Shown here one piece after another: positions 18,895 to 59,147 of a stretch of DNA of 64,000 bases. This stretch comes from Tricharina praecox (Eukaryota): NCBI RefSeq assembly GCF_024521635.1, contig NW_026250418.1:682001-746000 (forward strand), given 5' to 3'. The number at the start of each line of letters is the position of its first letter. The stretch's first letter is position 1. The notes beneath the pieces are model-generated. The model was not told the origin of the DNA, ran no database searches, and was given only the letters and a program-made list of their open reading frames with translations. A program made the translations under genes and the position numbers.

Positions 18895-19265
18895 TATTTA
18901 TGGACCGATCGACTCATCACTCATCTGGGGAATGCTCATCTCGTTCTAGGAGTCGGGATACTCGAGCATCGTACGTACGTAAATATTCTTACACGACTTA
19001 CAAGCCTCATGCAAGTTGCCAAACATTCGTTCATCCCGCGAGCACACCCTTCTGCAATCGCCCGCGAAGTTACGCTGCTGAAATAAGAGTACCCAGTATT
19101 CGCCGACGGGGTGGGATGGCGTGAATAGTGGTAGGGTACTGGGGTAGCCGGGGTGTAGTTCTTGCCGCCGCCGGAAGGGATGTGGGTGGGGGGGAGGGGG
19201 GGAGGGGGGGGGGGGGGGGGGGGGGGGGTTGTGGAGGTCTCACAGGTCTCACTGGTCTCGATCAT
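18895..19265 (-). CDS. Possible small proline-rich orphan gene
   Basis: ORF 18936..19265 has a poly-Pro run, a GTAAGT donor at ~19001 and a possible short terminal exon. No homology recognised. Confidence 0.2.
19187..19228 (+). repeat. Poly-G tract (~40 nt, G-quadruplex-prone)
   Basis: Run of G interrupted by two A residues. Confidence 0.9.
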
Positions 19266-19544
19266 GTGATTGTGTTTCGGGTAGGTAAGATCAGCAGCAC
19301 AAAATTCTGTCGGTAAAAGAGTTTATGAGAGCTTCGCACTTGCCACTCCCCGGGGACGTTATTGCGCCTCAAGCCCTCCAACCAGAAAGCGGGAAATGGC
19401 ACGGGAGTGGTGGCCACGACGCTGACACCAGCCAGTTCATGGCCAATCTGGCACCCTCGACCAGTGCACGCAACAGCCCGAAAAGCCCATGGGCTGGGCT
19501 GGGGCTGGTGGGCTGATCTGATAGCCCGAGCTGGCGCCGATGGG

Positions 19545-19870
19545 CTGGCAGCCCAGCCCGGGCTATTAGTTGGGCTGGGCGGGCTGGAGAGTGTTATGTT
19601 CCGCTGGGGCACACTGACCGCTCAGATTGAGATAGTAGCCGTTGATAACCCACGCACTATATGTGTTCTCAGCTCCGGGGAATACCGAAGCGTTATCGCA
19701 GATCTTGACGAACACATCCCTCCCGACGTAAACACGTTTGCTGTCGACCTCATAATAGTACCTGTTGACATCGGGCCCCAAGTCGGCGGCAGGCACAATA
19801 TTATTGCGGCAGGCACAATATTATTAGAGGGCAGACCGTCAGGCGTGTTGTTCGTGGGCGGCGTAGTCAT
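19545..19870 (-). pseudogene. Frameshifted paralog of the 21.7-kb orphan gene
   Basis: MTTPPTNNTPDGLPSNNIVPA is shifted out of frame from ADLGPDVNRYYY..VFVKICDNASVF..YSAWV by an exact 20-nt tandem duplication (19786-19805/19806-19825). It is followed by a GTCAGT..CTAAT..CAG intron (19618-19545). The 3' end was not determined. Confidence 0.65.
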
Positions 19871-20984
19871 TGTGGGGGGATGGGAAGGGCCCGGGCGTTG
19901 ATCGATGGAGAGGGGGCAGGTGTTGGCAATCGTGTCTGGGAGGAGTACCCCACATAAGCCCTGAGTGCGCACTGGATAGGCGAAGGTCTCAGGATGCATT
20001 CGGAGCTGACTAATCAGCGGGGGCGCAGGAAGAATCCAACCACTCCCCGCATGGTACTCTAGAAGTTACACTTTGTGATGTACGGCACGGCCGAACTCAA
20101 AAGAAAATGTAATGTGAAAAGGTTATCCTTCTATGTAACTGGCAGTCGGAAAGGCCCTTAACTATGTAAATTCACTGTCCGAAACAGATTAGTTGGCCTT
20201 GGCCACCCAATCCTAAAACAAACGTCTCTCATGCTTCTTCAGCGTCTCTCGTGTTTCTCAAATGCTCCGCATATTCTCCTCCTGTGCCCATCATGTCCGC
20301 CACATGCCAACTATCCTTCATGGGTTCGCTATCCCCTCATGGCGTACAACATTACCTGTACGTCGTGCAAATAGTCCAGACCTCTGCTCTCATTGACCGC
20401 CGGGAGCTCAGTTCCGATGGGGAGCGGTGATGATCTCGAAGGAAGCTGGCCACCGGTGCCACAACCAAGGTCAACGACATCCTCTATCATACTTTCAACC
20501 GATATCCTTCCGAAGTTTCGCCTGACCGCAGAGCACAGCGTAACTACATACAGACAGCCATCACCAGAGCACGACCCGGAGTTTATCATTCACCCACTGC
20601 TCTCTCTCGACGTTCGGCTGTAGTTCTTTTCCGCTCACAGCCGTGAACTCCACAGCTCCTGTACTGCACCCTCGCGCGGCGGAGGTGAGAGTGGAGTGCA
20701 GAGGCATTGCTGATAAGTAGTGGCTGGGTGTGGAAATGGTGCTACTACCTATGTGCGATGGATAGGACTCAGCTCTGCGTGAGCCTTACACTGATTATTA
20801 TGGAGAATGCACGGCGATTAGGAGACGAGATCGGAATCATACGATGCGATGTCAATTTTAAGATGGCTAGACAGTGAACAAACTTCGGTATTACCCCCTA
20901 TTTTCCGAAGAGAGGGTGGATGGATGAGGTTTAGGGATTACTACGTGGTGTTAGACACTAGTTGTTTCCAACGAAGTAATGGGA

Positions 20985-21755
20985 TTAATTACCAGAAACC
21001 GACGTCAGAAGAAAGGTGAATGGTACCCTCTTCCTCTTTCCAGCCAATGCCATTGCCTCCTCCGTCGACATGGCGATCAATTCCTCCAGGCTGGGTGGTG
21101 GCATCGGAACCGTCGTTTGGAACTTCTCCTCAACTACCTGTGGTACCCGATCTAATCGTATGTATGGTTGTTCTGAATGATTGAAGGTGCACATGTGTTT
21201 AATAAGGTTCTGTTTACGCAGTACTGTACATACCAGAGCCCGTGGTTAGTGAATGCAACGAGTGCAAAGTGATATCTTGTTCTCGGGGAGACTGAAGCTC
21301 GATGCGCACGTCCGTAACAAGGTGCTTCTCATGTTGTGGAGCTGTACATACCAGAGCCCGTGGCTAGTGAACGCAACGAGTTCAAAGTGGTCCCTTGTTC
21401 TAGGGGAGACTGACACGATAAACGACGCTCGAGCATCAATCTCTGACGACGGCCCAAGTCATCTAGATCTGTACATACCAGAGCCCGTGGTTAGTGAATG
21501 CAACGAGTGCAAAGTGGTATCTTGTTCTCAGGGAGACTGACCCTCGGTGAGGCAGACCCACGCTGAATAATGATCGCCGGAAAATAACGAAGCGTTTTTG
21601 CAGAGTTTGATGAACTCGCTCCTCACGGTCGAGAGGATGGGGCCATTGGTATAATAATAGCTGTTCACATCCGGACCGACGTCGGCAACAGGCACAATTG
21701 TCTTGGATGGCGGGCCGGAGGGCATGATGTTCTTGGATGGCGGGTCGGAGGACAT
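20985..21755 (-). CDS. Small orphan gene (183 aa if all three repeat-introns are spliced)
   Basis: Exons 21755-21542, 21468-21415 (54 nt), 21341-21297 (45 nt) and 21223-20985 form one open frame. The last intron donor reads TT rather than GT, so this allele may be defective. Confidence 0.6.
21224..21541 (-). repeat. Three near-identical 72-73-nt repeats that read as spliceosomal introns (introner-like)
   Basis: Copies are at 21224-21295, 21342-21413 and 21469-21540. The outer copies differ at 2 nt and the middle copy at ~7 nt. The minus strand reads (G)TCAGT...CTAAC...TACAG. Confidence 0.9.
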
Positions 21756-21762
21756 GATGTTC
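21703..21762. repeat. 30-bp tandem duplication in the orphan gene 5' coding region
   Basis: (C)TTGGATGGCGGG(C/T)CGGAGG(G/A)CATGATGTT occurs twice and encodes MSSDPPSKNI/MPSGPPSKTI. Confidence 0.85.
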
Positions 21763-22374
21763 GTGGGCTGCGTAAACAGTGCGGGGTCAGGGGGCAGGGA
21801 GTAGGATGGTGACGATGAAGATTAGCGTGGGGCTGGCGGGCCGCTGAGTGCGCACTTGATACCTACTACCTAAGCGAACGTCTAAGGATGCATCTAAATC
21901 TGACTAAGCAGCTACAAGTATCCAACTAATCCTTAGCACCCGAGTCAATTCGCACCCGTTCCCCAGACCTTCATTTCGCTTACCTTTTCTCACGGAACGG
22001 AAGACAGAGAGAGAGAGAGCTGTGAAGTGTTGACACCCTGATGAGCGATGAACGGTGCGGATGGTTGGATGCGGAGGGGTATTGCGTGGCAGAACACAGG
22101 CATTTCGACGACAGTACGGCCGGTTCCTGGTCACTCATTCGACTATACATGTTAGGGATACCATACGTAAAGTCTGAGGCGTGACGGTAGATTATCAGGT
22201 GTGGTCCGCAGCAGCGGGTAACCTTCGCTAGCACTTCACCTCTCTATCGTTAGTTTGAAGCGGCTCCAAACGTGGCTCCCCCACCACCCAAAGCACCCTT
22301 GTAAATTCTCCAACGTCCCACCTCCACCAAACGCGCTTCGCACCGATTCCACCAGCACCACCGTCAAATCCGCC

Positions 22375-22706
22375 ATGGCCAAGAAAGGCACGCGCGCACA
22401 CACCCTTCGCGCCTTCCCCTGCCTCAACCAGCTACCTGGCTAACACGCATCGCAGCGAAATCTCGAACGGTTGCCGTGCGTCTGATCTCGATGGCGATGA
22501 CGGGGTACTACAAGACTTTCGTGCGGCCGCGCACCCACCGCCCGCTCAGCATGATCAAATACGATCCCGTCGGTATGTTTTCTTTCGTCCGCGGAGGTCC
22601 GCGGGAGGTCCGGCGGGGTCAAGGATTGCGGATGGCCGCTGACCCGGTGCCGGCAGTGAAGCGCAGCGTGCTCTTCCTCGAGCAGAAGCGGAAGGGAGGG
22701 AAATAA
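22375..22706 (+). CDS. MRPL39: Mitochondrial ribosomal protein bL33m (yeast Mrpl39), 3 exons
   Basis: The spliced product is [59 protein letters not shown]. Introns are 22388-22455 (GC-AG) and 22573-22656. Confidence 0.93.
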
Positions 22707-22904
22707 ACGTCGGTGTGGGGGGAGTCGCACGATCGGCGAGGGAGGCTACGGGGTGCGGGATTGGGCTGCGGACGGTGACGGTCGTGTACTGTAGCGATAG
22801 AACGGGTCTTTCCTTTCTCACCGACGGTCGGGCGGCGGCGGCGCGGGCGGCCGGGTGGTTGCGGACACGGGTAGCCGGATTCAACGTGATGGCGGGGGTT
22901 GGCG

Positions 22905-23166
22905 ACTCGGGCTGAGGATTGACTCCGCCGAGTGAACTGGACGGAACGAACTCACTGAGACGCGTGCCAGTGAAGTGGTGCGGCTGGTATGGACTCCCTT
23001 CGGCTTTCACCCGCCTCATCCACTGCCGCCAATTCCCACACTGGAACCCCAGACGCCCGTAGAAACAGACGTTTGTGAGCAAGCGGTGGCCACTTGCTTC
23101 TCCGGGGTGTAGCCGGCGTGAGAACCTCCGGCTCTACAGGAGCTTTTGCACCCGGGAGTTGGGGAT
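22905..23166 (-). ncRNA. Candidate structured non-coding RNA (unassigned)
   Basis: Consecutive and nested hairpins whose mismatches become G-U pairs only on the minus strand. No known snRNA, SRP or RNase P motif was matched. Confidence 0.35.
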
Positions 23167-26100
23167 GAACAATTGGCGCAACAAGACATCATAGACTCCG
23201 ACCCTACGTTACTCCGCTATCCCATGCTACCGTATTCGTTGCACGTGTACTTATTGTAGCCCTTGGGTCATTACGCCTGGGGAGTACGGACGGGACTGGA
23301 TTGCAGCACGCAGTGCGTCCGGAGGCTAGGACTGGGACCGTCGAGGCAATTGTGGTGAGATACTAGCACCAATATACCTAATAGGTACATCATGCTCGAT
23401 AAGAGGCAGACAGATGGGGAGAATGCAATCGCAATCAACGATACCGGAAGAACATCGTCTACGAGTGATGCGTGTGCCGTGAATGCCATCACCAGCTTAT
23501 CTACCTGGGCACTACATACAATGCAAACTCTGCCTCATCATTGATTCGGTTGAGCAGCGAGCTATGCTTCGATGACGCTGAATCTGTCTTCTCACTCGAC
23601 CTACCAACCAGCCAACCAGCCAACCAGCCAATACCGCCACGCCCGTCCAAACCCAACAGTCTGGAACGGAAGATTTCCTTCGCTGATGGCACCGCCCGTA
23701 ACGCGAGTATTATGGTATGTTACATACATGGAAGGAATACGAACGGACTCGCCAGAGGAGGCTGCGATCGATCTCCACCCCTTGGCGCCCCATAGAGGGG
23801 GGTGAAGTAGAGAATGGTTCCTCGTAGGTATCCGCGAGCATACGGGGGAGCGTGTGGAGGCCGCAAGAGGACGTGGGTTGGTGGGTATGTATTGGGGGAA
23901 CCGCTCACGGTGGAGTGCGGCAGTGCGGCAGTGTCGCAGTGACGGAGGTCAACAGAGGTTTAGTGGAAAGTGTGAGACGTGAAATCTTCTCAAGTACATA
24001 CACGCGCAGGACAGAATCACGTGGAATACATATTACATAGCGCATGGATCCATCGTTTCAGTCAGGTCCGCCATGTAATCGCGTACATGCGCCGAGTGAT
24101 GGCGTGTGAATGTGTGTATCGTGGTAGGTGGTGGGTGGTGGGTGTGGTCAAGGGTTTAATAGCCGTGTCCGGGTCCATGTCTGTGGCTGCGTCTATGCAG
24201 CTGGCATGGCCGGTCGGTCGATCGATCACTACGGTGCGTGGTGATTGCGCCAGTCACAGATTATGAACCTACCGGTACCGTGGACGGGAACTGTACTGCG
24301 ATGGGGGCTCGCAGGACACATCCGTACCGATTCCAGGCTGTACTACTACTCGATATATTATCCAGTAATAGGTTTGGATTACGAGAGCCATAGCTGACTC
24401 CAGATGGTGCCGTGCCTACGGTATTGGACGACCCCAGCGTGAAGAAGGACTCAAGAGCACAGTTCGGCAGCCAAACCGACGTAGAGCTCACCGCTTGGCA
24501 AACATTTACCGGCCCGCACGACCTCAAGTACTAAGGGGCGTGAAGGAAGAGGCAGCTTGGCGTTATCAGTGAGCCCCGGAGAGAGGAGACCTTGTTGAGA
24601 CCTTGCTGGGACCTTGTACTTGGGGAGAGAGACCTTGCTGGGACCTGGTGGGACCTATGTGTTATGTAGAGCAGACCCGATGCGGACGGCAAACGTTGAA
24701 TTGTTTCTGTTGTCACTGTTTCTGTTCTGCCTGTCCGGGCTCCGTCTTTCTTTCTTCTCATCATCATCATCAGACCAACATTGCGCCATAGAGGACGCCG
24801 GTGAGATCGAGTCATTCGATCCATTATCATCATAGACGGTAGACCTCACCTTTCAATTGATCACGTTTTTGTCTCATCACGTTTTTGAGTCTCTCAGTAC
24901 TACTCCAGGAACTATACCTTCCACCGACCGCGATCACTCTTCACGACTCCGCCCGAGCACCTCCCCGTCCGAGCACGTTGGCGTACTCTACATACGCACT
25001 CGCCGGTGCTCTCCCCCCACCAACCGCCGCCGGGAATCCATCTAAGAACCACTATACCTACTAGTAGGTGGCCATGGAATTCCCGTATCCCGTACCCCCG
25101 GCCGGGGATCTCAATCGGATCGGAGAGTTCCTACGGGTATGTACTCTACCGTACTCCACCGTTCATACAATTCGCGCGGCCGGCTAACCCAGCACGGGGC
25201 AAGTGTGGGTGTCGAACGCTCACCGAAGAAGCTACCCTTTATACCGGGGAGGGGGGTTGGGACAACATCTCGAACATCTCGAACGAACGGACGGGTCCGA
25301 CTGGTGGGGCTGAGCCAAACCGCAATTTCCAGACCGGGGTGGTCAAAAGTCGGGACGCTCCGAAACTCGGAGGCAGGGACCGCAGTGTGCACAGGGGGGG
25401 CACGAGGTAGGGCAGTTCCTCGGTCCAGTTCGGCAATAGTGATCCTGCGGAACCCGATGGCTGAGGCTTGGGCCGTGCAGCCCCAGCTACACCTGGGTGC
25501 ACCGATGCTATTGGCGGAGTTTGGTTTCTGCGAGCGCGGCTCCAGCCTCTAGCCAACTAAGCGAGTCGCTACCATCCATCCACTGCTTCTGGGTAGAGGT
25601 TGACTAGTCCATTAGGTACCTAGTACTCACTAGTTAAAGCGGCGAGACGGTTGAAACTTGACGATGGTTCAGTGGTTTTCACTGTCACTGGCCGAGTGAG
25701 AGATGTTGAGTGGCGGCGATGGATGGGTGGGGGGACAACTCGACCGGCGTTCGAATTGCTGCTTGGCTTTCCTCTGCGAGGCGACGGACTCGGAGTCTGG
25801 TGCAGGACACGGCTTACATACAAGTCGATCGCGACGATGGCACAACCCCTGTCAACTCTATTACCCCGCAACCTTACTACTGCGGACGGCGGCCGAGGGG
25901 AGCTGTGGGACCGTTGCAGCGACGAACTTGCGCATCGTCCGCTAACCACCTATCTACCAGTACTATGGATACAGCGTCGTCACTATCGCGGTGCGAGGTG
26001 CGTGTGCCAGCCGGTCTGGGTATGTAGGTGTGTGTGCTGATGCTGTGGTGGTGGTGATGGTGGTGTGGTGGTGTGGTGGAGGTGTGGAGGTGTGGATCGC

Positions 26101-30437: not shown

Positions 30438-33400
30438 CTACAATCCCAAAAGCTCCCAATCCGGCTCTTCATCCTCATCATCCTCATCCTCTTCTTCAGA
30501 TGCTGCCTCTTCCTGTGATGGTACTACGTCCATCTCGACGTCCGGAAGAAACCCTCCACCAGCCTCCTCCTCCTCCTTCTCTTCTTCGGGTATGGCACGT
30601 TCAGCGTCTGGCAAAAAGCCCTCGCCATCATCCAGGCCTGCGATGGATCCACTACCGCTGCTGCCATTAATGGGTGCTGGCTTGGTTGTTTGCAAGGGGT
30701 GGGCAGGCTCGCTGGGGCTGTCATTTTCTGGAATGAATCCACCGCCATCGTCTAGGCCTGCGATGGATCCACTGCTGTTGCTGGCATCGGTGGGAGCTGG
30801 CTGGGTTGTTGGTATGGGGTTGGCAGGCTCTGTGTGGCTGGCATCTTCTGGAATGAATCCACAGCCATAATCATCGTTCGGTAGGAATCCTCCTCGTCCT
30901 CCACTGCCATCTTCCTCTGGAACAAATTCACCACCGGCCCCCTGATCTGGTAAGAATCCTCCTCCCCCACTGCCATCTTCCTCTGGGATAAATCCACCAC
31001 CGCCATCTTCAACATCACCGTCTGCCAAAAAGCCACCGCCACCATACCCATCCTCCTCCTCTTCCGCTGACCTCATCAGCTTTTCACTCCCCTTCCTTGC
31101 AGTCTCCTGCGCAGTATTCGTTTCGTCGCCATCTGCCAAAAACCCGCCCTCTCCTTCCTCATCTTCAACCGCTCGCCTCATCCTTCTGCTCCTCCTTCTG
31201 AAAATCTCCTGAGCAATATCCTCTTCCTCATCAGTGTCTGCCAAAAAGCCACCCTCCTCCTGATCTTCGTCTTCTTCATCTTCATATTCGTTTTCGTCCG
31301 ACTGCACCCTCCGCTTGGCCTGGTTTCTTCTCTCCGGCTTCTCCCTCCTTTCTACACCGTCGGTCCTCAATCTCGCCACAGGGACCTCATCGTTCCCCAT
31401 CCCAAGTCTCTCCCTGATCCTCAACCTAAGCAGCCACCTCCTCCACAACCTCAGTGCCTCCAGTCCCCTTTGTCTCTCAACCTCCCTCTCGGCCTCCCAC
31501 TCCAGCCCCTCTACCACCGCCTCTACCGCGGCACCATACTCACTCGCCACGACCACGCCCTTAACCATCGGACTAGCCATGCGGTTCCTAAAATCAAAGC
31601 CCGCGACGGCGTCGACATAATCGATACCGAGGATTCGCGCGGCGTTGCGGGCATTAGTGTGGAGGATGTGGACACCACCTGCCGGCACCATCGAGGGAAC
31701 GAATACATCGAGGTTTCCGAAGCGATTCTTGGGGACGATGCCGTTTACGACTGGGGGCGGGGAGTAAAGCCTCGTTTGGGCGTGCGAGAACATCGGCTGG
31801 TGCGGTAGAGCTTCGTCTTCCCCCTCCTCCTCCCGACCACCTTCTCCTTTCCGCGCTCTCGCTCTCGCGGGCGTGAATTTTAACGGAATCTCGTTCTTCA
31901 GAACCTCGCGCCCGAGCTTGTACCACTGCTCTACGGTCTTTACTTCCTTCACGTCCTGCCGCCGGAACACGGTCTCGACCTTTCCTTTGCCGCTATTGAC
32001 AGTCCCCACTTTCCTCTCCGGACTGATAATCTGACCCCTCTTGAGATGTCTCTTCAGCGCAAAAATCGGATGGTCCTTAAAGTCTTGCACCGCCTTCGGC
32101 ATAGGCTCCTCCAATTGCAGCCTGGAAAACTCCGCACCCTCGAGCTGATCGCGATCTACTCTGTAGCCGCGATGGAAGTTCCGGCGGAGGAGACGGAGAA
32201 ACCATTTGTCACCTCTTTTGGTAGAGTGAACGCGGAAGCGTCGCGTACGTGCGGAGAGGAAGGTCGCGTAGCGGCGGGTTACGTCGATGATGTGGCCGGT
32301 GTCTTCGAAGGCGAGAGCATATGTGAGTGTGTTTAGGGGATCCGAGAGAGGGGGTTCGAGGAGGGCGGGTTTGGCCACGGTTTGCGTGACGAGCGGGTCC
32401 ACGGTTATCCAGCGTTGCGACGGGACCGACCAAGCTTCTATCCAGAATACGGGGTAATCGCTTTCGACGAGTTTTTGCTCTTCGGGTTTGGGCGGCGGGG
32501 CGCTGGGTTTTGTTGGGGCTACGTAAGGGGCGCGGAGAATAGGATCGGTGAGAGAGCTGATGCGCGGTGGAACCGTAGCGGAGGCGGAGACAACGGGAGC
32601 TTCTGGTTCCGAGGTGGTAGAGGAGACTATCGAGGCCGCTATTCGTGCCGGTGGGGACTTCTGTGTGAAGGTGAAAGGCAGGACCTGTAGGGAGCACACG
32701 AGGCGTGTCTCGATATCTGCTGAGCGTAGAAGTGCGCAGAAGAGTTGTGCGCCAAGGTCGCGAGACCCGGACAGCGTTGTGGACGCATGTATGAAGTCTG
32801 CTCTAGATATCAGCTCTGTGCCCAGCGGCGTCGACCACTGCGGAGTGTATAAGCCAACGGTCCAACATGAACAGACAGCGTGCAGGATACCTTTTCCAGA
32901 GCTTCAGATTCCATCCATTGTGCAGCCGTCAGGCCTCGCCGTGTGATCTTGAATTTCCTCCGAAATACAGTAACAGCCTCCTTAAGGCCATCGGTAAACA
33001 TCTTGGACCTGCGGAACTGCTGGTCTGTTGGATCATGGTGTAGCTTGTCATACACTTTGTCAGGAAGTAGCGGCCGTAAATTTTCCTGTACTTCCTCAAT
33101 ATTGCACCATCGATTCCGCAAATTTACGTGGGACAGCAGGCATAACAGGTGAAGTTTATGCGTTTCGAGACGAATCCTCCTATCCATCGCTGTGATCTTT
33201 CGGCGAGCCGTGGTATCAATATTTTTTGATGATGGTTCGGTGAGAATCAATTCCAACATCGCGGATTTTGGCTCCGGCACAGGTTCCGGATCCGGCTGCG
33301 ACTGTGAGTTCATAATATCTCGGAGATCGATAGCTTCCCGACATGTCAGTATCCAGGACTCGTTCACGGTACGGAAAAGAAACACACGCTTTGAACTCAG

Positions 33401-38295: not shown

Positions 38296-41118
38296 ATGGC
38301 TCCCTCCAGCGCATCATCCACGCTTCCCACGTCTTACTCTCTCGCGAGATACACATATGCATCTCCTTCAACCGATGGCGCTTGGCTCATATATCCGCGC
38401 CGCAACGGCCTCTACGTCGTGTGCGATCCAGCTGTCTGCCATCTCAAGATCGTATGGGCGGTCGAACTACTCGCCGAGATTGATGTTATCGCTGATGTGA
38501 AGCATTCGAACGATTGTTTTGTCGTTGGACGCTTGCCCGTGCTCGCTGTGAAGTATGCGGGAGGACTGAAGAGACTGCAACTGAGGTTTCAACGCGTGGA
38601 GGACTATGAGAGTGTTGTGCGGTATTTGGAGGGATGGGGGGTGGAGGTCAGGAAGGATGCTACGGCCATGCAGATGGGTAGCGTCTCCAGCCAGTCTTCA
38701 TGGATGGGCCAGCAGCAGATGGGAAGAGCTCGGACGCAGTTTGGCGTGGAAAAGTGGAATCATGCTGCGATGGAGCAGCAACGGGCAATGGGTGGGGAGA
38801 CGCAAATCGAATCGACTGCACAGGGCCAACAGGTAGTGAGGCAAGCCCAAACATCCGTCTCGACGTACGATCATCCTCCTGGGACTTTCCAGCAGCCGCA
38901 TCAGCAACAGAATCTCCAGTCGAATCGGCCAATCTCTCACCAGGAAGGACTCCTCTCCTCTCAGGGGCCGCATCAGCAATATTTCCAGTCGAATCAGCCA
39001 ATCTCTCACCACGAAGGACTCCTCTCCTCTCAGCAGCCGCATCAGCAATATTTCCAGTCGAATCATACAATCTCTCGTCACAATCCTCGCCACTCTTACC
39101 AGGAAGGACTCCCCTCCTCTCAGCAGCCACATCAGCAACATAATCTCCCGCCGAATCAGCAACATAATCTCCCGCCGAATCAGCCAATCCCTCGCCAGGA
39201 AGGACTCCCCTCCTCCCAGCATCCACAGCAGCCCGTGGGTATGGATCCAGTATTTTCACCGGTGCAACAGATCTCAGATCGCTCTTACCAGCACCAGCAA
39301 GTTTCCGAACACCCATACCAGTTGCCTGAGAAAACTCAATCCCAGAAGCAGCAGAACCAGATGCACACCCTGCAGAATCATGCACTCGAGCACTCTGACG
39401 GCCAGCACCATTTCGGAATGCAGGACTCATCCCAGAGCACTCGCATGCAGTTTCTACCCCCGCGCACAAGTTCCTCTGGCTTAGCTCAGCCGTATCAATC
39501 CGAATGCCGACAAACATTTTCTTCTCAAACGTCCCACATTACCCAGCACGCATACCAGCCTCAGCCCCAGCTGCATTCTCCGTTCCATGCCACTTCATCT
39601 CTAGACGACGATGGAGTCCCGCCTCCGCGTTTGCCAATCTCTTTCTCCCAACGCAAGATGGAGACTGTGGATATGCACGAGCTTCTTGCACTCCCACCCC
39701 TCGAAAAGCCCACGATCGTGCCTAGACCTCAGAGGTTGTTGACGCCTGAAGTTACGCCCCCCAGAAAGAAGCGTGCGCCGGCGAAGCCTAGAGCTAAGTC
39801 GAAGGGCAAGGGGATGTCGACGGAGAAAGACAACAATGGAGACAAAAAAACGGACGATAAAGAAGCGGCCGTCAGCAGTACAGCGAAGAAGCAAGCAAAG
39901 CCGAGAGCCAGACCAAAGCCGAAAGCGAAAGTTGTGGAGGCGGAAGGCCTAAACGTTTTCCAATGGGTAGTGGGTGACAAGGCTGAAGCGGAGGGCATAA
40001 ACTTGGTCACCGGGATAGTTAGTACGAAGGCTAAAGATGGGGATGCTGGGGAGAAGGAGAAAGAAGTTGCAGTAATCGTCGAAGAAGTGAAGAAACCGAC
40101 GAAGTCGAGGGCCAAACCAAAGCCGAAAGCAAAAGTTGTGGAGGCGGAAGGCATGAATGCGGAAACAGGGATAGTTGATGACAAGGCTGAAGATCGGGAC
40201 GGAGGGGAGAAGGAAAATATACTTGCAGTCACCGTCAAAGAAGCGAAGAAACCGACGAAGCCGAGGGCGAGACCAAAGCCGAAGGCAAAAGCTGCGGAGA
40301 AGCAGGTTGAGGGTGATGTGATCGAGAAAAACTCTGTGGATTGTGGAGGGACAACCAGCAACAAGACTCTCCCGCCGTCGAGACCTCTTGCAAAACCTAA
40401 GTCGAATACGGCGGTGGAGAACTTGGTTCATAACGACAAGCCTCAGGATGAGACTCCAACTACAGGGCCAGAAGAAAAGTCGCTAGCGCACGAGCACAAT
40501 CACAGCTCCTCTGCTCCGGTCCACCCTCAGGAAAAGCCCAGTTTTGCCTCGGATCCGATAGGGAACCCGCTTTCTACCGTTAATTCTCCACGGGAGAACA
40601 AGAAACGAGGGCCCCCGCCAGATGAAGATCTACAGTCAAACACGCCCCAGAAGAAGCGAATTTCCGAATTTCCCGCTACTGAGCCCCCTACTCCCTTGAG
40701 AGATGGAGAAGATTCGGTATCTCCGACTATACAGCTTGAGACGCTCCCACAAGACCAAGGCGTATCCGCTACGCAATCCATTCCCTCGGGCGCCAATATA
40801 CCAGCGATTTCGGAGATTATGGAAGGCCAGCCTCTTGGCCCTCTGGTTGGCGTAGAATCGCTGGATCCTAGGCTCCATACCCTGATGAATATCTCGACAA
40901 TCTTTCAAGACGTGGCACGACGGTTGGACTTCGCAAATATCTCGGAACCGGAGCAGAACATGACAATGGAGCTTCTGATCTCGAGTTCCCTTATCGATCC
41001 AGGCTTCTTGCGGATGTTTCAAGCTATCGCCAGAGTCTGCCAGAATCCTGACTTTGTGGAAAGAATGTTGGTGCTGGCGGCGGTTTCGAGTGAGTGGAAT
41101 GATTCGGAGCCGGTGTAG
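38296..41118 (+). CDS. REC114: Rec114/Rec7/Asy1-like meiotic double-strand-break protein
   Basis: N-terminal ~115-aa PH-like block (YSLARYTY..W..LKIVW..LLAEI..PVLAVKY..KRLQLRFQ..DYESVVRYL), a long disordered middle, and C-terminal helix LISSSLIDPGFLRMFQAIARV resembling the last Rec114 signature motif. Confidence 0.7.
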   Translation: MAPSSASSTLPTSYSLARYTYASPSTDGAWLIYPRRNGLYVVCDPAVCHLKIVWAVELLAEIDVIADVKHSNDCFVVGRLPVLAVKYAGGLKRLQLRFQRVEDYESVVRYLEGWGVEVRKDATAMQMGSVSSQSSWMGQQQMGRARTQFGVEKWNHAAMEQQRAMGGETQIESTAQGQQVVRQAQTSVSTYDHPPGTFQQPHQQQNLQSNRPISHQEGLLSSQGPHQQYFQSNQPISHHEGLLSSQQPHQQYFQSNHTISRHNPRHSYQEGLPSSQQPHQQHNLPPNQQHNLPPNQPIPRQEGLPSSQHPQQPVGMDPVFSPVQQISDRSYQHQQVSEHPYQLPEKTQSQKQQNQMHTLQNHALEHSDGQHHFGMQDSSQSTRMQFLPPRTSSSGLAQPYQSECRQTFSSQTSHITQHAYQPQPQLHSPFHATSSLDDDGVPPPRLPISFSQRKMETVDMHELLALPPLEKPTIVPRPQRLLTPEVTPPRKKRAPAKPRAKSKGKGMSTEKDNNGDKKTDDKEAAVSSTAKKQAKPRARPKPKAKVVEAEGLNVFQWVVGDKAEAEGINLVTGIVSTKAKDGDAGEKEKEVAVIVEEVKKPTKSRAKPKPKAKVVEAEGMNAETGIVDDKAEDRDGGEKENILAVTVKEAKKPTKPRARPKPKAKAAEKQVEGDVIEKNSVDCGGTTSNKTLPPSRPLAKPKSNTAVENLVHNDKPQDETPTTGPEEKSLAHEHNHSSSAPVHPQEKPSFASDPIGNPLSTVNSPRENKKRGPPPDEDLQSNTPQKKRISEFPATEPPTPLRDGEDSVSPTIQLETLPQDQGVSATQSIPSGANIPAISEIMEGQPLGPLVGVESLDPRLHTLMNISTIFQDVARRLDFANISEPEQNMTMELLISSSLIDPGFLRMFQAIARVCQNPDFVERMLVLAAVSSEWNDSEPV

Positions 41119-42017: not shown

Positions 42018-42326
42018 TGCTGCTTCCGCCGAGATACTGACCTGCTTCCGCCGAGATGCTGACCTGCTGTCGAACCGATTGCTGACCTGCTGTTGCCCGA
42101 GTCGTCCGCCGATATATTAACCTGCTTCCGCTGATATGTTAACCTGCCGTCCAACCGACCGCTGACCTGCTGTTGCCCTTGTCGTCCGCCGAATTACTGA
42201 TCTGCTTCCGCCGAGATGCTGACCTTCTGTCGAAACCGATTGCTAACCTGCTGTTGTCACTGTCGTCCGCCGAGATGCTGACCTGCTTCAGCCGATGTTA
42301 ACCTGCTGTTGCCACTCTCGTCCGCC
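42018..42326. repeat. Degenerate minisatellite (~21-31-nt units with higher-order repetition)
   Basis: Recurrent units TGCTGACCTGCTTCCGCCGAGA, GCTGACCTGCTGTCGAACCGATT and ACCTGCTGTTGCCC..GTCGTCCGCCGA. Confidence 0.85.
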
Positions 42327-57287: not shown

Positions 57288-58520
57288 TTACTCGTGACTT
57301 ACGATGGTGCCCTCGCGCCTCCACATGCGCTCCAGCACCATCTCGGCTTCCGGCACGGCCCCACTAACGCCCAGGTCGTCTCTACTCCCGCTCTCGCCCT
57401 GGCCGCGCATCAATTTCCTCCCACTGCCCTCCTGCAGGCTCCTACTGAGGCCCAGGGTGACGCCCTCCTGCTGCAGCGGCTTATTGGGGCCTGGCACGCC
57501 GCGGCGGGGCACGCGCTCAATCGCCTCGAGCAGCGGGTTCTTGAAGCGCCGCACATTCATGTACTCCCGCGCGACACGGTCGAACTCCTTTTCGAGGGCG
57601 GCGGGGAGCGCGATGTGGTGGCTATGATAGTGGTGGTTTGCGGCGGTGGGGGTAGCGGGCGGGCTTGCGACGCTCGCGCGCTGCAGCCACAGCTTCTGCT
57701 GCGTGCGGCTCGCCGGCGCGATCGAGTATGCGCTGTCGCTGCGGCGGAGCGGGTGTGCGGATGCGGCGCTCGACGGGGACGCAGTGAAGCGCGAGGTTAG
57801 CGGCGGGGTCGGCGGGCGCTCGCCGCCGCCGCCGTGAGAGATGATGGCCGTGGAGTCGTTGGGCGGCGGGGACGGCGGGAGCTCGATCTCTACGTCGACT
57901 GGAAGGGGCGGGGGCGGGGGCGGCGGTGGTGGTGTGAGCTTCGTGGTCTTCTTGCGGTCGCCGCTTTTGGAGCGCTGGCGCTCGTGCAGAGTTGTGCCCT
58001 TGCGCGCGGCGCCCACCGCGCGGTGCCGCCGCGCCTCGCGGTCCAGGCTGCGGGTGCTGGAGGATTTGGTCAGTGCGGCGGTTGACGGGTTACGCTGTAG
58101 CGCGGTACGTGAGTCCGTCCGCTGCATCTTGCCGTGGCCGCCGGAGGAATCGGTCCGTGTGATCGGTGGTGCCTCCCCGCCACCGCCCCCCCTTCCGCCG
58201 TCTCCCTCTGCCGCCTCGAAGTCCTCATCGCCGCCCCCGTTCTCGCTGCCCACGGAGCCGAGCTCGAAGGCGGTCTTCTTCCGGCTCTTCTCCCCTTTCT
58301 CCCCTCCCCGCTCGCCCCGCTCGCCCTTCTCTGTAGTTGTCGTGGTAGTGGTAGTGTTAGTAGTGGTGGCGGTGGCGCCGCCGCCGAGTTTGTTGAGCCC
58401 GCGGCCGAAACTGGGGACTCGCGGGTTGCCATGGTGGTGTCGGGACACGACGAATTGCTTGTGGTGCGCGTGAGGTTTTCGCTCAGAGTGGGGAGCTGCT
58501 GCGGCGGCTGCTTCAGACAT
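57288..58520 (-). CDS. TORC1 subunit Tco89-like protein
   Basis: Disordered 410-aa ORF containing SRTQQKLWLQR followed by EFDRVAREYMNVRRFKNP, the conserved C-terminal block as I recall it from fungal Tco89 proteins. Confidence 0.7.
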   Translation of the reverse strand: MSEAAAAAAPHSERKPHAHHKQFVVSRHHHGNPRVPSFGRGLNKLGGGATATTTNTTTTTTTTEKGERGERGGEKGEKSRKKTAFELGSVGSENGGGDEDFEAAEGDGGRGGGGGEAPPITRTDSSGGHGKMQRTDSRTALQRNPSTAALTKSSSTRSLDREARRHRAVGAARKGTTLHERQRSKSGDRKKTTKLTPPPPPPPPPLPVDVEIELPPSPPPNDSTAIISHGGGGERPPTPPLTSRFTASPSSAASAHPLRRSDSAYSIAPASRTQQKLWLQRASVASPPATPTAANHHYHSHHIALPAALEKEFDRVAREYMNVRRFKNPLLEAIERVPRRGVPGPNKPLQQEGVTLGLSRSLQEGSGRKLMRGQGESGSRDDLGVSGAVPEAEMVLERMWRREGTIVSHE

Positions 58521-59147
58521 GTCGTGATTGTTTCCTCCGTAGTTCGTGGTATGCGGTTGTGGTGGTGGTGGTGGTGGTGGTTGTGGTGGTAGTGGTGATG
58601 GGCGTGGCGGATGGGGTTGTGTGGTTGGGGGAGAGTGTGTGGAGAGGTACGTGTGTGGTGGTGGAGAAGTCTGTTGCGATTGGATCGGACTGAGTTAGGC
58701 AGCTGGGTTTGCGCTTGCGCTGTTGCGTGAGGCGTGAAAGCATGTACCCCGTACCCGTACCCGTGGCGCGGACGTGTAGGCGACACTAGGGGGTTAAGTA
58801 CTTGCAGGCGGCAGAGGACGAGGGAGAGAAGACAGGAGAGGCGCGGATGAAAGGGGAGGGGATGGGATTGAATCAACTTAAAGGAGTTGACAAAGTGGCA
58901 GCTGTTGGGTTCGCAAGGACAACTACATTCAGAAGCTACTTCGGTACATTCATATTACTAGACTTTGTGTTTGTACTGAAGTCTACACACTCCGCACTGC
59001 TCGGAGCACCGATGTGCAATCACTCGCTACTGCAGCCTAAACGGTGCAACCACCACCACAGCAAAAACCAGACAGGACCGAAAAACGACAAACCAATAAG
59101 GCTGTATCAACACAAAAGGACACCTCCTATTATACACCCATTCCTTC

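Follow-up and report, generated by a model that had tools for sequence, protein, structure and literature searches.

How does a gene come to carry nearly identical introns between exons that are unrelated to each other? This question is raised by a small gene on the minus strand of a 64-kb stretch of DNA (the window), in which three direct repeats, starting at plus-strand coordinates 21224, 21342, and 21469, are separated by unique spacers. An earlier note had read each repeat as a working 73-nt intron and the spacers as micro-exons, and it had proposed that either an introner-like element (ILE) or an intron-exon cassette array with diversifying exons lies behind the pattern. Here, we find that the relatives of this gene carry a single intron at the site of the array, that the three copies lie in one gene, that splicing in the present-day gene removes only one of them as a unit, and that the spliced message encodes a 203-aa protein; in this anatomy of the locus we have high confidence. 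As to its origin, we favor, and give an even chance, that an ancestral phase-1 intron was multiplied within the gene by tandem cassette duplication and later rewired by point mutations. Few spliceosomal introns show visible signs of having been copied, and how such copying takes place is still argued. The locus provides a compact, transcript-supported case, in which the relatives retain a single intron and one lineage has three copies. Moreover, the point changes that decided the fate of the copies are visible: one copy has a dead branch point, another has a dead donor, and a stop codon has turned into a sense codon. Intron sequence has also become a coding exon that differs sharply between near-identical strains. 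The locus is a good test bed for fungal intron duplication and exon birth, and it reveals no new kind of element.

The description of three direct repeats with unrelated spacers was borne out by all searches. The repeats were recovered in a repeat search of the window; their 48-nt core has three matches at ≤3 mismatches compared with none in 100 shuffles; and an nhmmer search of the window, its profile built from the three copies, found all three with E values of ~1e-26, the next match having an E value of 0.8. When the copies are read on the minus strand as units of 73 nt, numbered from the 5' end of the gene, they differ at seven (copies 1 and 2), three (copies 1 and 3), and eight (copies 2 and 3) positions, corresponding to an identity of 89-96%. 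The array is the only repeat family of the window with unique spacers. Spacer 1 comprises 54 nt (21415-21468) and spacer 2 comprises 45 nt (21297-21341). In stringent local alignments of the spacers to each other, to the unit on both strands, and to the flanking exons, all scores were within those of shuffles, and searches for a source of the spacers (blastn-short and tblastn against the window and two related loci, L001 and L002) returned self-matches only. As the earlier note had stated, the length of each spacer is a multiple of three, both are stop-free in the frame that it had used, and the removal of all three units leaves an open frame. The chance that both spacers are multiples of three and stop-free is about 0.025, which suggests that both were once coding; therefore, the three-intron picture may describe an earlier state of the gene.

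The splice signals reported for the repeats were recovered in most respects. The TACAG acceptor and an internal GTATGT are common to all three copies, and the branch motif is CTAAC in copies 1 and 3 and CTAGC in the middle copy. The GTCAGT donor, said to be present in every copy, is found in copies 1 and 2; copy 3, which runs from 21296 downward, starts with TTCAGT and has no GT. Consistent with the earlier note, the repeat search found neither an inverted repeat in the unit nor a terminal inverted repeat, and no target-site duplication is visible in the flanks of the copies. Just upstream of the unit, copies 1 and 3 have six of eight bases in common. Three further explanations were considered and rejected. 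An independent DNA contig carrying allele A (record 6 of run X1) runs from copy 3 to copy 1, which excludes an assembly artifact. A CRISPR array, which is a prokaryotic locus of short palindromic repeats with regular spacers, is incompatible with the eukaryotic (fungal) nuclear context, the spliced transcripts, and the lack of an inverted repeat in the unit; the earlier note had pointed to CRISPR for the look of the array only. RIP-like mutation as the source of the copy divergence was rejected by eye, many of the differences being transversions. Concerning the context of the array, long ORFs in the window match Med13, NOL10, Rad4, Rec114, and TCO89, and the NOL10-like ORF is nearest to an ascomycete-dominated cluster.

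The splicing of the gene was read from contigs of X3 and X4, two small runs from different studies with different organism labels. Their label as RNA is a guess; we take them as transcripts based on the GT..AG ends of every well-aligned joint, on the strand of the gene, and the absence of intergenic cover. The X4 contig (record 25) matches the window without a mismatch; the pieces given for it extend to 21468, followed by a joint to 21542 and 74 further letters. At the joint 21542/21468, the 73 nt skipped are exactly copy 1, and the minus-strand ends are GT..AG. Another joint with such ends, 21352/21223, skips 128 nt. The joint 20993/20940, at which 52 nt are skipped, is present in both X3 and X4, and the joint 20843/20774 in X4 removes 68 nt from the 3' UTR. 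The X4 piece from 21352 to 21468 has no letters other than those of the window and contains the letters specific to copy 2; therefore, copy 2 stays in the mRNA, with 63 of its 73 nt (86%) now part of a coding exon. Spacer 2, by contrast with spacer 1, is intronic and lies inside the 128-nt intron. X3 has the same architecture; at its copy-1 joint it shows a diverged 30-nt exon start, and the 115 letters between its exon-1 and exon-3 pieces fit the 114-nt middle exon of allele A, a second allele considered below. The features of the gene are listed in Table 1.

Table 1. Features of the intron array and of the gene that contains it
Feature	Positions	Strand	Description
Transcribed span	20094..21797	-	X3 record 19 covers 20126-21797; X4 record 25 from 20094
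Exon 1, coding part	21542..21755	-	ATG at 21755-21753; phase-1 end; conserved N-terminal domain of a small orphan family
Copy 1	21469..21541	-	73-nt phase-1 intron, GTCAGT .. CTAAC .. TACAG
New 117-nt coding exon	21352..21468	-	Spacer 1 joined in frame to 21352-21414, the 5'-most 63 nt of copy 2
Copy 2	21342..21414	-	Full-length intron copy; branch motif CTAGC; CTA at the position of the in-frame TGA of copy 1; not excised whole
Composite 128-nt intron	21224..21351	-	From the GTATGT donor (21351) in the final 10 nt of copy 2, through spacer 2, to the end of copy 3
Copy 3	21224..21296	-	Donor-dead (TTCAGT); gives the CTAAC branch point and TACAG acceptor to the 128-nt intron
Exon 3	20993..21223	-	Conserved C-terminal part
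52-nt intron	20941..20992	-	GTAATT .. CTAAC .. TAG; spliced in both RNA-like contigs
Last coding segment	20891..20940	-	Stop TAA at 20893-20891
3' UTR intron	20775..20842	-	68 nt, GT..AG; spliced in X4, retained in X3

The spliced message encodes 203 aa in an open frame, in which 39 codons form an insert specific to this lineage. This replaces the 183-aa product of the earlier note, in which the last ORF was taken to end at 20985; that ORF runs into the 52-nt intron, which had been overlooked, and after its removal the frame continues to the TAA listed in Table 1. The states of the copies match their sequences. Copy 2 is not excisable on its own terms because the branch-point A is a G, its 63 retained nt are open in frame because CTA replaces the TGA of copy 1, and copy 3 is unable to start an intron because its GT is TT. 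Accordingly, the idea of three working 73-nt introns that flank two micro-exons can be retained only in part: all three repeats are intron-derived and copy 1 is excised exactly as proposed, but copies 2 and 3 are not, and spacer 1 is exonic, within the larger exon, while spacer 2 is not. Use of the internal GTATGT, the outcome that the earlier note had held to be incompatible with its model, is observed at copy 2, part of which is exon, whereas copy 1 is spliced as it predicted. The conceptual frame of the three-intron model is open, and the model may fit the ancestral state; as a description of the present-day gene it is almost certainly wrong, given that copy 3 has no GT, that copy 2 has CTAGC, that both spliced contigs use the GTATGT of copy 2 and skip spacer 2, and that a hypothetical excision of copy 2 would leave the donor-less copy 3 in the message, where the frame stops at 131 aa. 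Minor isoforms may exist, since contigs drop rare variants; one candidate, from the GTCAGT donor of copy 2 to the acceptor of copy 3 (21415/21223, 191 nt), is in frame and is one of two in-frame alternatives on paper, the other being an intron of 318 nt (21542/21223). Stwintron-type nested splicing was considered for the internal GTATGT and is superfluous, as the joints are simple.

The gene belongs to a small family. A search with exon 1 gave only six matches among 1.84 billion representatives, one of which is this gene read through into copy 1. No Pfam family was found for exon 1, exon 3, or the paralog located nearby in the window; a PDB profile search with the exon-1 alignment gave no matches; and no longer homologs of exon 3 were found. 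Two metagenome loci, L001 and L002, are relatives with 48-56% protein identity. Exon 1 of either locus has its phase-1 end at the position found in our gene and is followed by one intron (531-600 in L001, 70 nt; 1348-1411 in L002, 64 nt) and then directly by the homolog of exon 3 (tblastn, 46% identity and E 1.5e-13 at 645-815 in L001; 47% identity and E 4e-19 at 1432-1641 in L002). L002 is co-linear, with residue 7 of exon 3 falling exactly at the predicted place. Spacer 1, the exonic part of copy 2, and spacer 2 have no counterpart in L001 or L002, and the array begins and ends where the single phase-1 intron of both loci does. A weak tblastn match of exon 3 also lies at 58451-58591 of the window (E 0.002), within the TCO89-like ORF.

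To compare the introns, the interiors were shuffled 1000 times with the splice ends fixed. Copy 1 aligned to the L001 intron with a score of 20 (3.5 ± 1.4 in shuffles), which none of the 1000 shuffles reached; for the L002 intron, 23 of 1000 shuffles reached the score, and for the 5' part of the intron-like sequence that follows exon 1 of the paralog (from 19618 downward), three of 1000 did so. For two other introns of the same gene, which served as controls, the values were 1000 and 349 of 1000. Based on these results, the 73-nt unit is the gene's own old intron. In exon 1, a 30-nt tandem duplication at 21691-21750 on the minus strand (21701-21766 in TRF) doubles a 10-residue N-terminal PPSK motif, of which L001 and L002 have one unit.

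The homology of the unit to the resident intron bears directly on the first explanation of the earlier note, an ILE. According to published descriptions, the ILEs of Dothideomycetes number in the hundreds and are spread over unrelated genes; their length is roughly double that of regular introns, and their predicted structure is stable, with low free energy and compensatory changes (PMC3609843; PMC4457414). The array resembles them, as they are portrayed in these sources, in having multiple near-identical introns with canonical signals and no terminal inverted repeats or target-site duplications, and the unique spacers would fit three insertions of a mobile intron family into one gene. It differs from them in its ordinary length, in its lack of a stable fold, and in that the unit descends from a resident intron, and no dispersal was seen in the data searched. 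Specifically, the profile search found no further copies in the 64-kb window, and an invariant 21-mer of the unit had no matches in the JGI metagenome contigs. In the soil DNA run X1 (~7.5x), the depth over the repeats is 7.2-11 compared with 7.5 in the flanks, an excess that is due to one allelic contig; this measure is weak, as the shortest match that can be placed is uncertain. In contrast, a truly dispersed element 1.7 kb away (19462-19588) reaches a depth of 50-100 in X1. With 73 nt, the unit lies within the 52-128 nt of the other GT..AG joints (52, 68, 84, and 128 nt). The copies fold with minimum free energies of −10.5, −17.8, and −8.7 kcal/mol; relative to shuffles, the z-scores are +1.14, −0.21, and +1.35, so the unit has no stable fold. 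Finally, ILEs are gained at positions without an intron in relatives, while relatives at ~50% identity have a homologous intron at this very site, as does the paralog. Together, these findings make an ILE very improbable and do not support this part of the earlier note. Copies in unrelated genes may exist beyond the window, the JGI metagenome contigs, and the depth of the run.

A better match is the class of same gene duplications (SGD) of near-identical introns, which comprises 82 members in 24 fungi (Collemare et al. 2013, PMC3609843, summarizing van der Burgt et al. 2012). According to that summary, SGD introns have the length and folding energy of ordinary introns; half of them have duplicated flanking exon sequence, and the other half, in which this is not the case, are ascribed to transposition within the transcript or to transfer between paralogs (PMC3609843). 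The locus, where a resident intron was triplicated within its gene and one copy exonized, fits this published class, as summarized there, rather than the ILEs. As in SGD, the array is confined to one gene (within the 64-kb window, the JGI metagenome contigs, and the depth of the DNA run), the 73-nt unit is ordinary in length and folding energy, and a duplication of flanking exon sequence is unrecognizable, as in the second half of the class (PMC3609843). Unlike in SGD, where each copy is an intron, three copies are present here, of which one is excised whole, one is 86% exonized, and one is donor-less, and the RNA-like contigs show this rewiring. The accounts of intron duplication available to us in part contain no mention of exonized SGD copies.

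Exonization of intronic sequence is a general phenomenon, and copy 2 follows it in that intron-derived sequence became an in-frame internal exon by a change of splice sites; it departs from it in its source, which is a duplicated short fungal intron of the gene itself and not a transposon or deep intronic sequence.

How, then, did the copies arise? Under tandem cassette duplication, which we favor, the single-intron site of the relatives would have been converted to copy 1, the 54-nt spacer, copy 2, the 45-nt spacer, and copy 3 in two successive local tandem duplications. The duplicated cassette may have consisted of the intron and, from the fast-evolving beginning of the following exon, ~15-19 codons; the cassette units would measure 127, 118, and about 130 nt. 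The exonic parts of the cassettes would have diverged past recognition, and the intronic parts would have stayed 90-97% alike. Point changes in copy 2 (branch A to G, and TGA to CTA) and in copy 3 (GT to TT) would have followed; the strong GTATGT of copy 2 would have become the donor, with copy 3 giving the branch point and acceptor, and spacer 2 would have been lost from the mRNA. By our reading, no part of the protein is conserved as poorly among the relatives as that encoded by the start of exon 3. When spacer 2 is aligned to exon 3 in register, over the 45 nt at the start of the exon, its left-anchored score is reached by 31 of 5000 shuffles (p ~0.006 before correction for ~8+ comparisons); with free ends, 310 of 5000 shuffles reach the score. 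Also in favor of a cassette origin, tandem duplication has occurred elsewhere in this gene (30 nt) and in its paralog (20 nt). Against it, spacer 1 resembles nothing to which it was compared, and, at each of the six ends, the similarity of the copies breaks off no more than 8 nt from the splice site. Such similarity bounded by splice sites is better predicted by an intron-precise mechanism than by cassette duplication. The second explanation of the earlier note, an intron-exon cassette array with diversifying exons, remains a live account of the origin of the array. A related precedent is the AGGT model, in which a local tandem genomic duplication likewise alters exon-intron structure and which also gives "imprecise" outcomes, with use of latent splice sites and addition of coding sequence; in that model as described, however, the new intron consists of duplicated exon sequence, while here a preexisting intron was copied (PMC3443670).

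The copy boundaries would be explained by intron transposition, in which the excised resident intron would have re-entered the mRNA by reverse splicing at two more phase-1 positions; the mRNA would then have been converted to cDNA and have recombined with the locus, with later mutations and splicing as in cassette duplication. The unit extends from the GT to the AG of an intron and all three sites are in phase 1, in agreement with this mechanism as defined in a review (PMC3443670); the spacers are unique, the frame left after removing all three units is open, terminal inverted repeats and target-site duplications are absent, and transposition has been proposed, in the summary of the class, for the half of SGD without flanking exon duplication (PMC3609843). 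However, transposition needs 99 nt of prior exon as its target, and this sequence is absent from both relatives, which go from the intron directly to exon 3; the entire array lies inside the ancestral intron site; and spacer 2 has the weak in-register similarity to exon 3. Moreover, reverse splicing is, according to the same source, unproven in vivo (PMC3443670). We regard transposition as rather unlikely. A single complex repair or template-switching event, in which the intron was copied twice, two filler fragments were captured from elsewhere, and exonization came later, would agree with the replacement of a single intron by the array and with the lack of a detectable spacer source in the window or the relatives; but two fillers that are both multiples of three and stop-free are improbable by chance unless selected, and no donor sequence is known. 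This event strikes us as decidedly improbable. Tandem cassette duplication remains the account that we prefer.

The middle exon differs between alleles. In X1, a 272-nt DNA contig (21242-21516) represents a second allele with 29 difference events to the window (23 substitutions and six indels), of which 28 fall within 21363-21458, inside the 117-nt exon. The remaining event lies in the 110 nt covered of the 128-nt intron, and the 48 nt covered of copy 1 have none. Compared by hand, the substitutions of this allele reproduce the 30 letters at the start of the middle exon in X3. Elsewhere, X3 differs from the window by two letters in the exon-1 piece (21542-21797), one in the exon-3 piece (20993-21222), and none in 20126-20940. 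Thus, conserved introns and a diverged exon are seen directly between near-identical strains. The rebuilt exon of the second allele comprises 114 nt with an open frame; the frame is open in both alleles, and all readable codon changes between them are non-synonymous. In its copy 2, the GTCAGT and the branch motif are lost, and the GTATGT donor is kept. A contig in run X2 (record 12, 21373-21639, six other letters) may represent a third allele. The exon may have diverged through selection acting on the protein, as a long-standing balanced polymorphism, or by way of a conversion tract; we have no preference among the three. It is conceivable, and in our view improbable, that the locus is a system of an intron and a variable-exon cassette, in which a phase-1 intron was duplicated in place along with a short symmetric exon, one intron copy turned coding, and the exon that resulted is kept hypervariable between strains that are nearly identical elsewhere. 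If so, balancing or diversifying selection would act on a recognition-type surface, and the conserved intron copies would be homology arms for swapping exon variants.

The surroundings of the gene hold several further repeats. The paralogous copy of exon 1 lies at 19566-19869 on the minus strand (tblastn, 53% identity over 51 aa). A perfect 20-nt tandem duplication (19786-19825) shifts its frame after the ATG; it has a GTCAGT donor-like site at 19618 and no exon-3 homolog downstream, and the RNA-like contigs cover the region unspliced. The paralog is probably a transcribed pseudogene fragment. The dispersed element at 19462-19588 is GC-rich and internally palindromic and occurs once in the window, in the intron-like region of the paralog; in all four runs, many contigs match this stretch only and then continue into unlike sequence, with loose ends. 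The element looks MITE-like. Just downstream of the paralog fragment, a 45-nt homopolymer (19184-19228; G on the plus strand, 86% pure) is found, and contigs break there. On the opposite strand, the neighboring gene at 22454-23376 (plus strand) has an 84-nt GT..AG intron (22572-22655) that is spliced in both RNA-like runs; the ends of a second joint, 22385/22454, are non-canonical, and this joint may be an alignment artifact. Contiguous tandem repeats are present at 42025-42264 (3 x 80 nt), 39985-40296 (2 x 156 nt), 30607-30846 (2 x 120 nt), 38895-39232 (4 x ~83 nt), and 163-290 (a 9-nt microsatellite), and some of the tandem repeats lie inside long ORFs (Rec114-like and Rad4-like).
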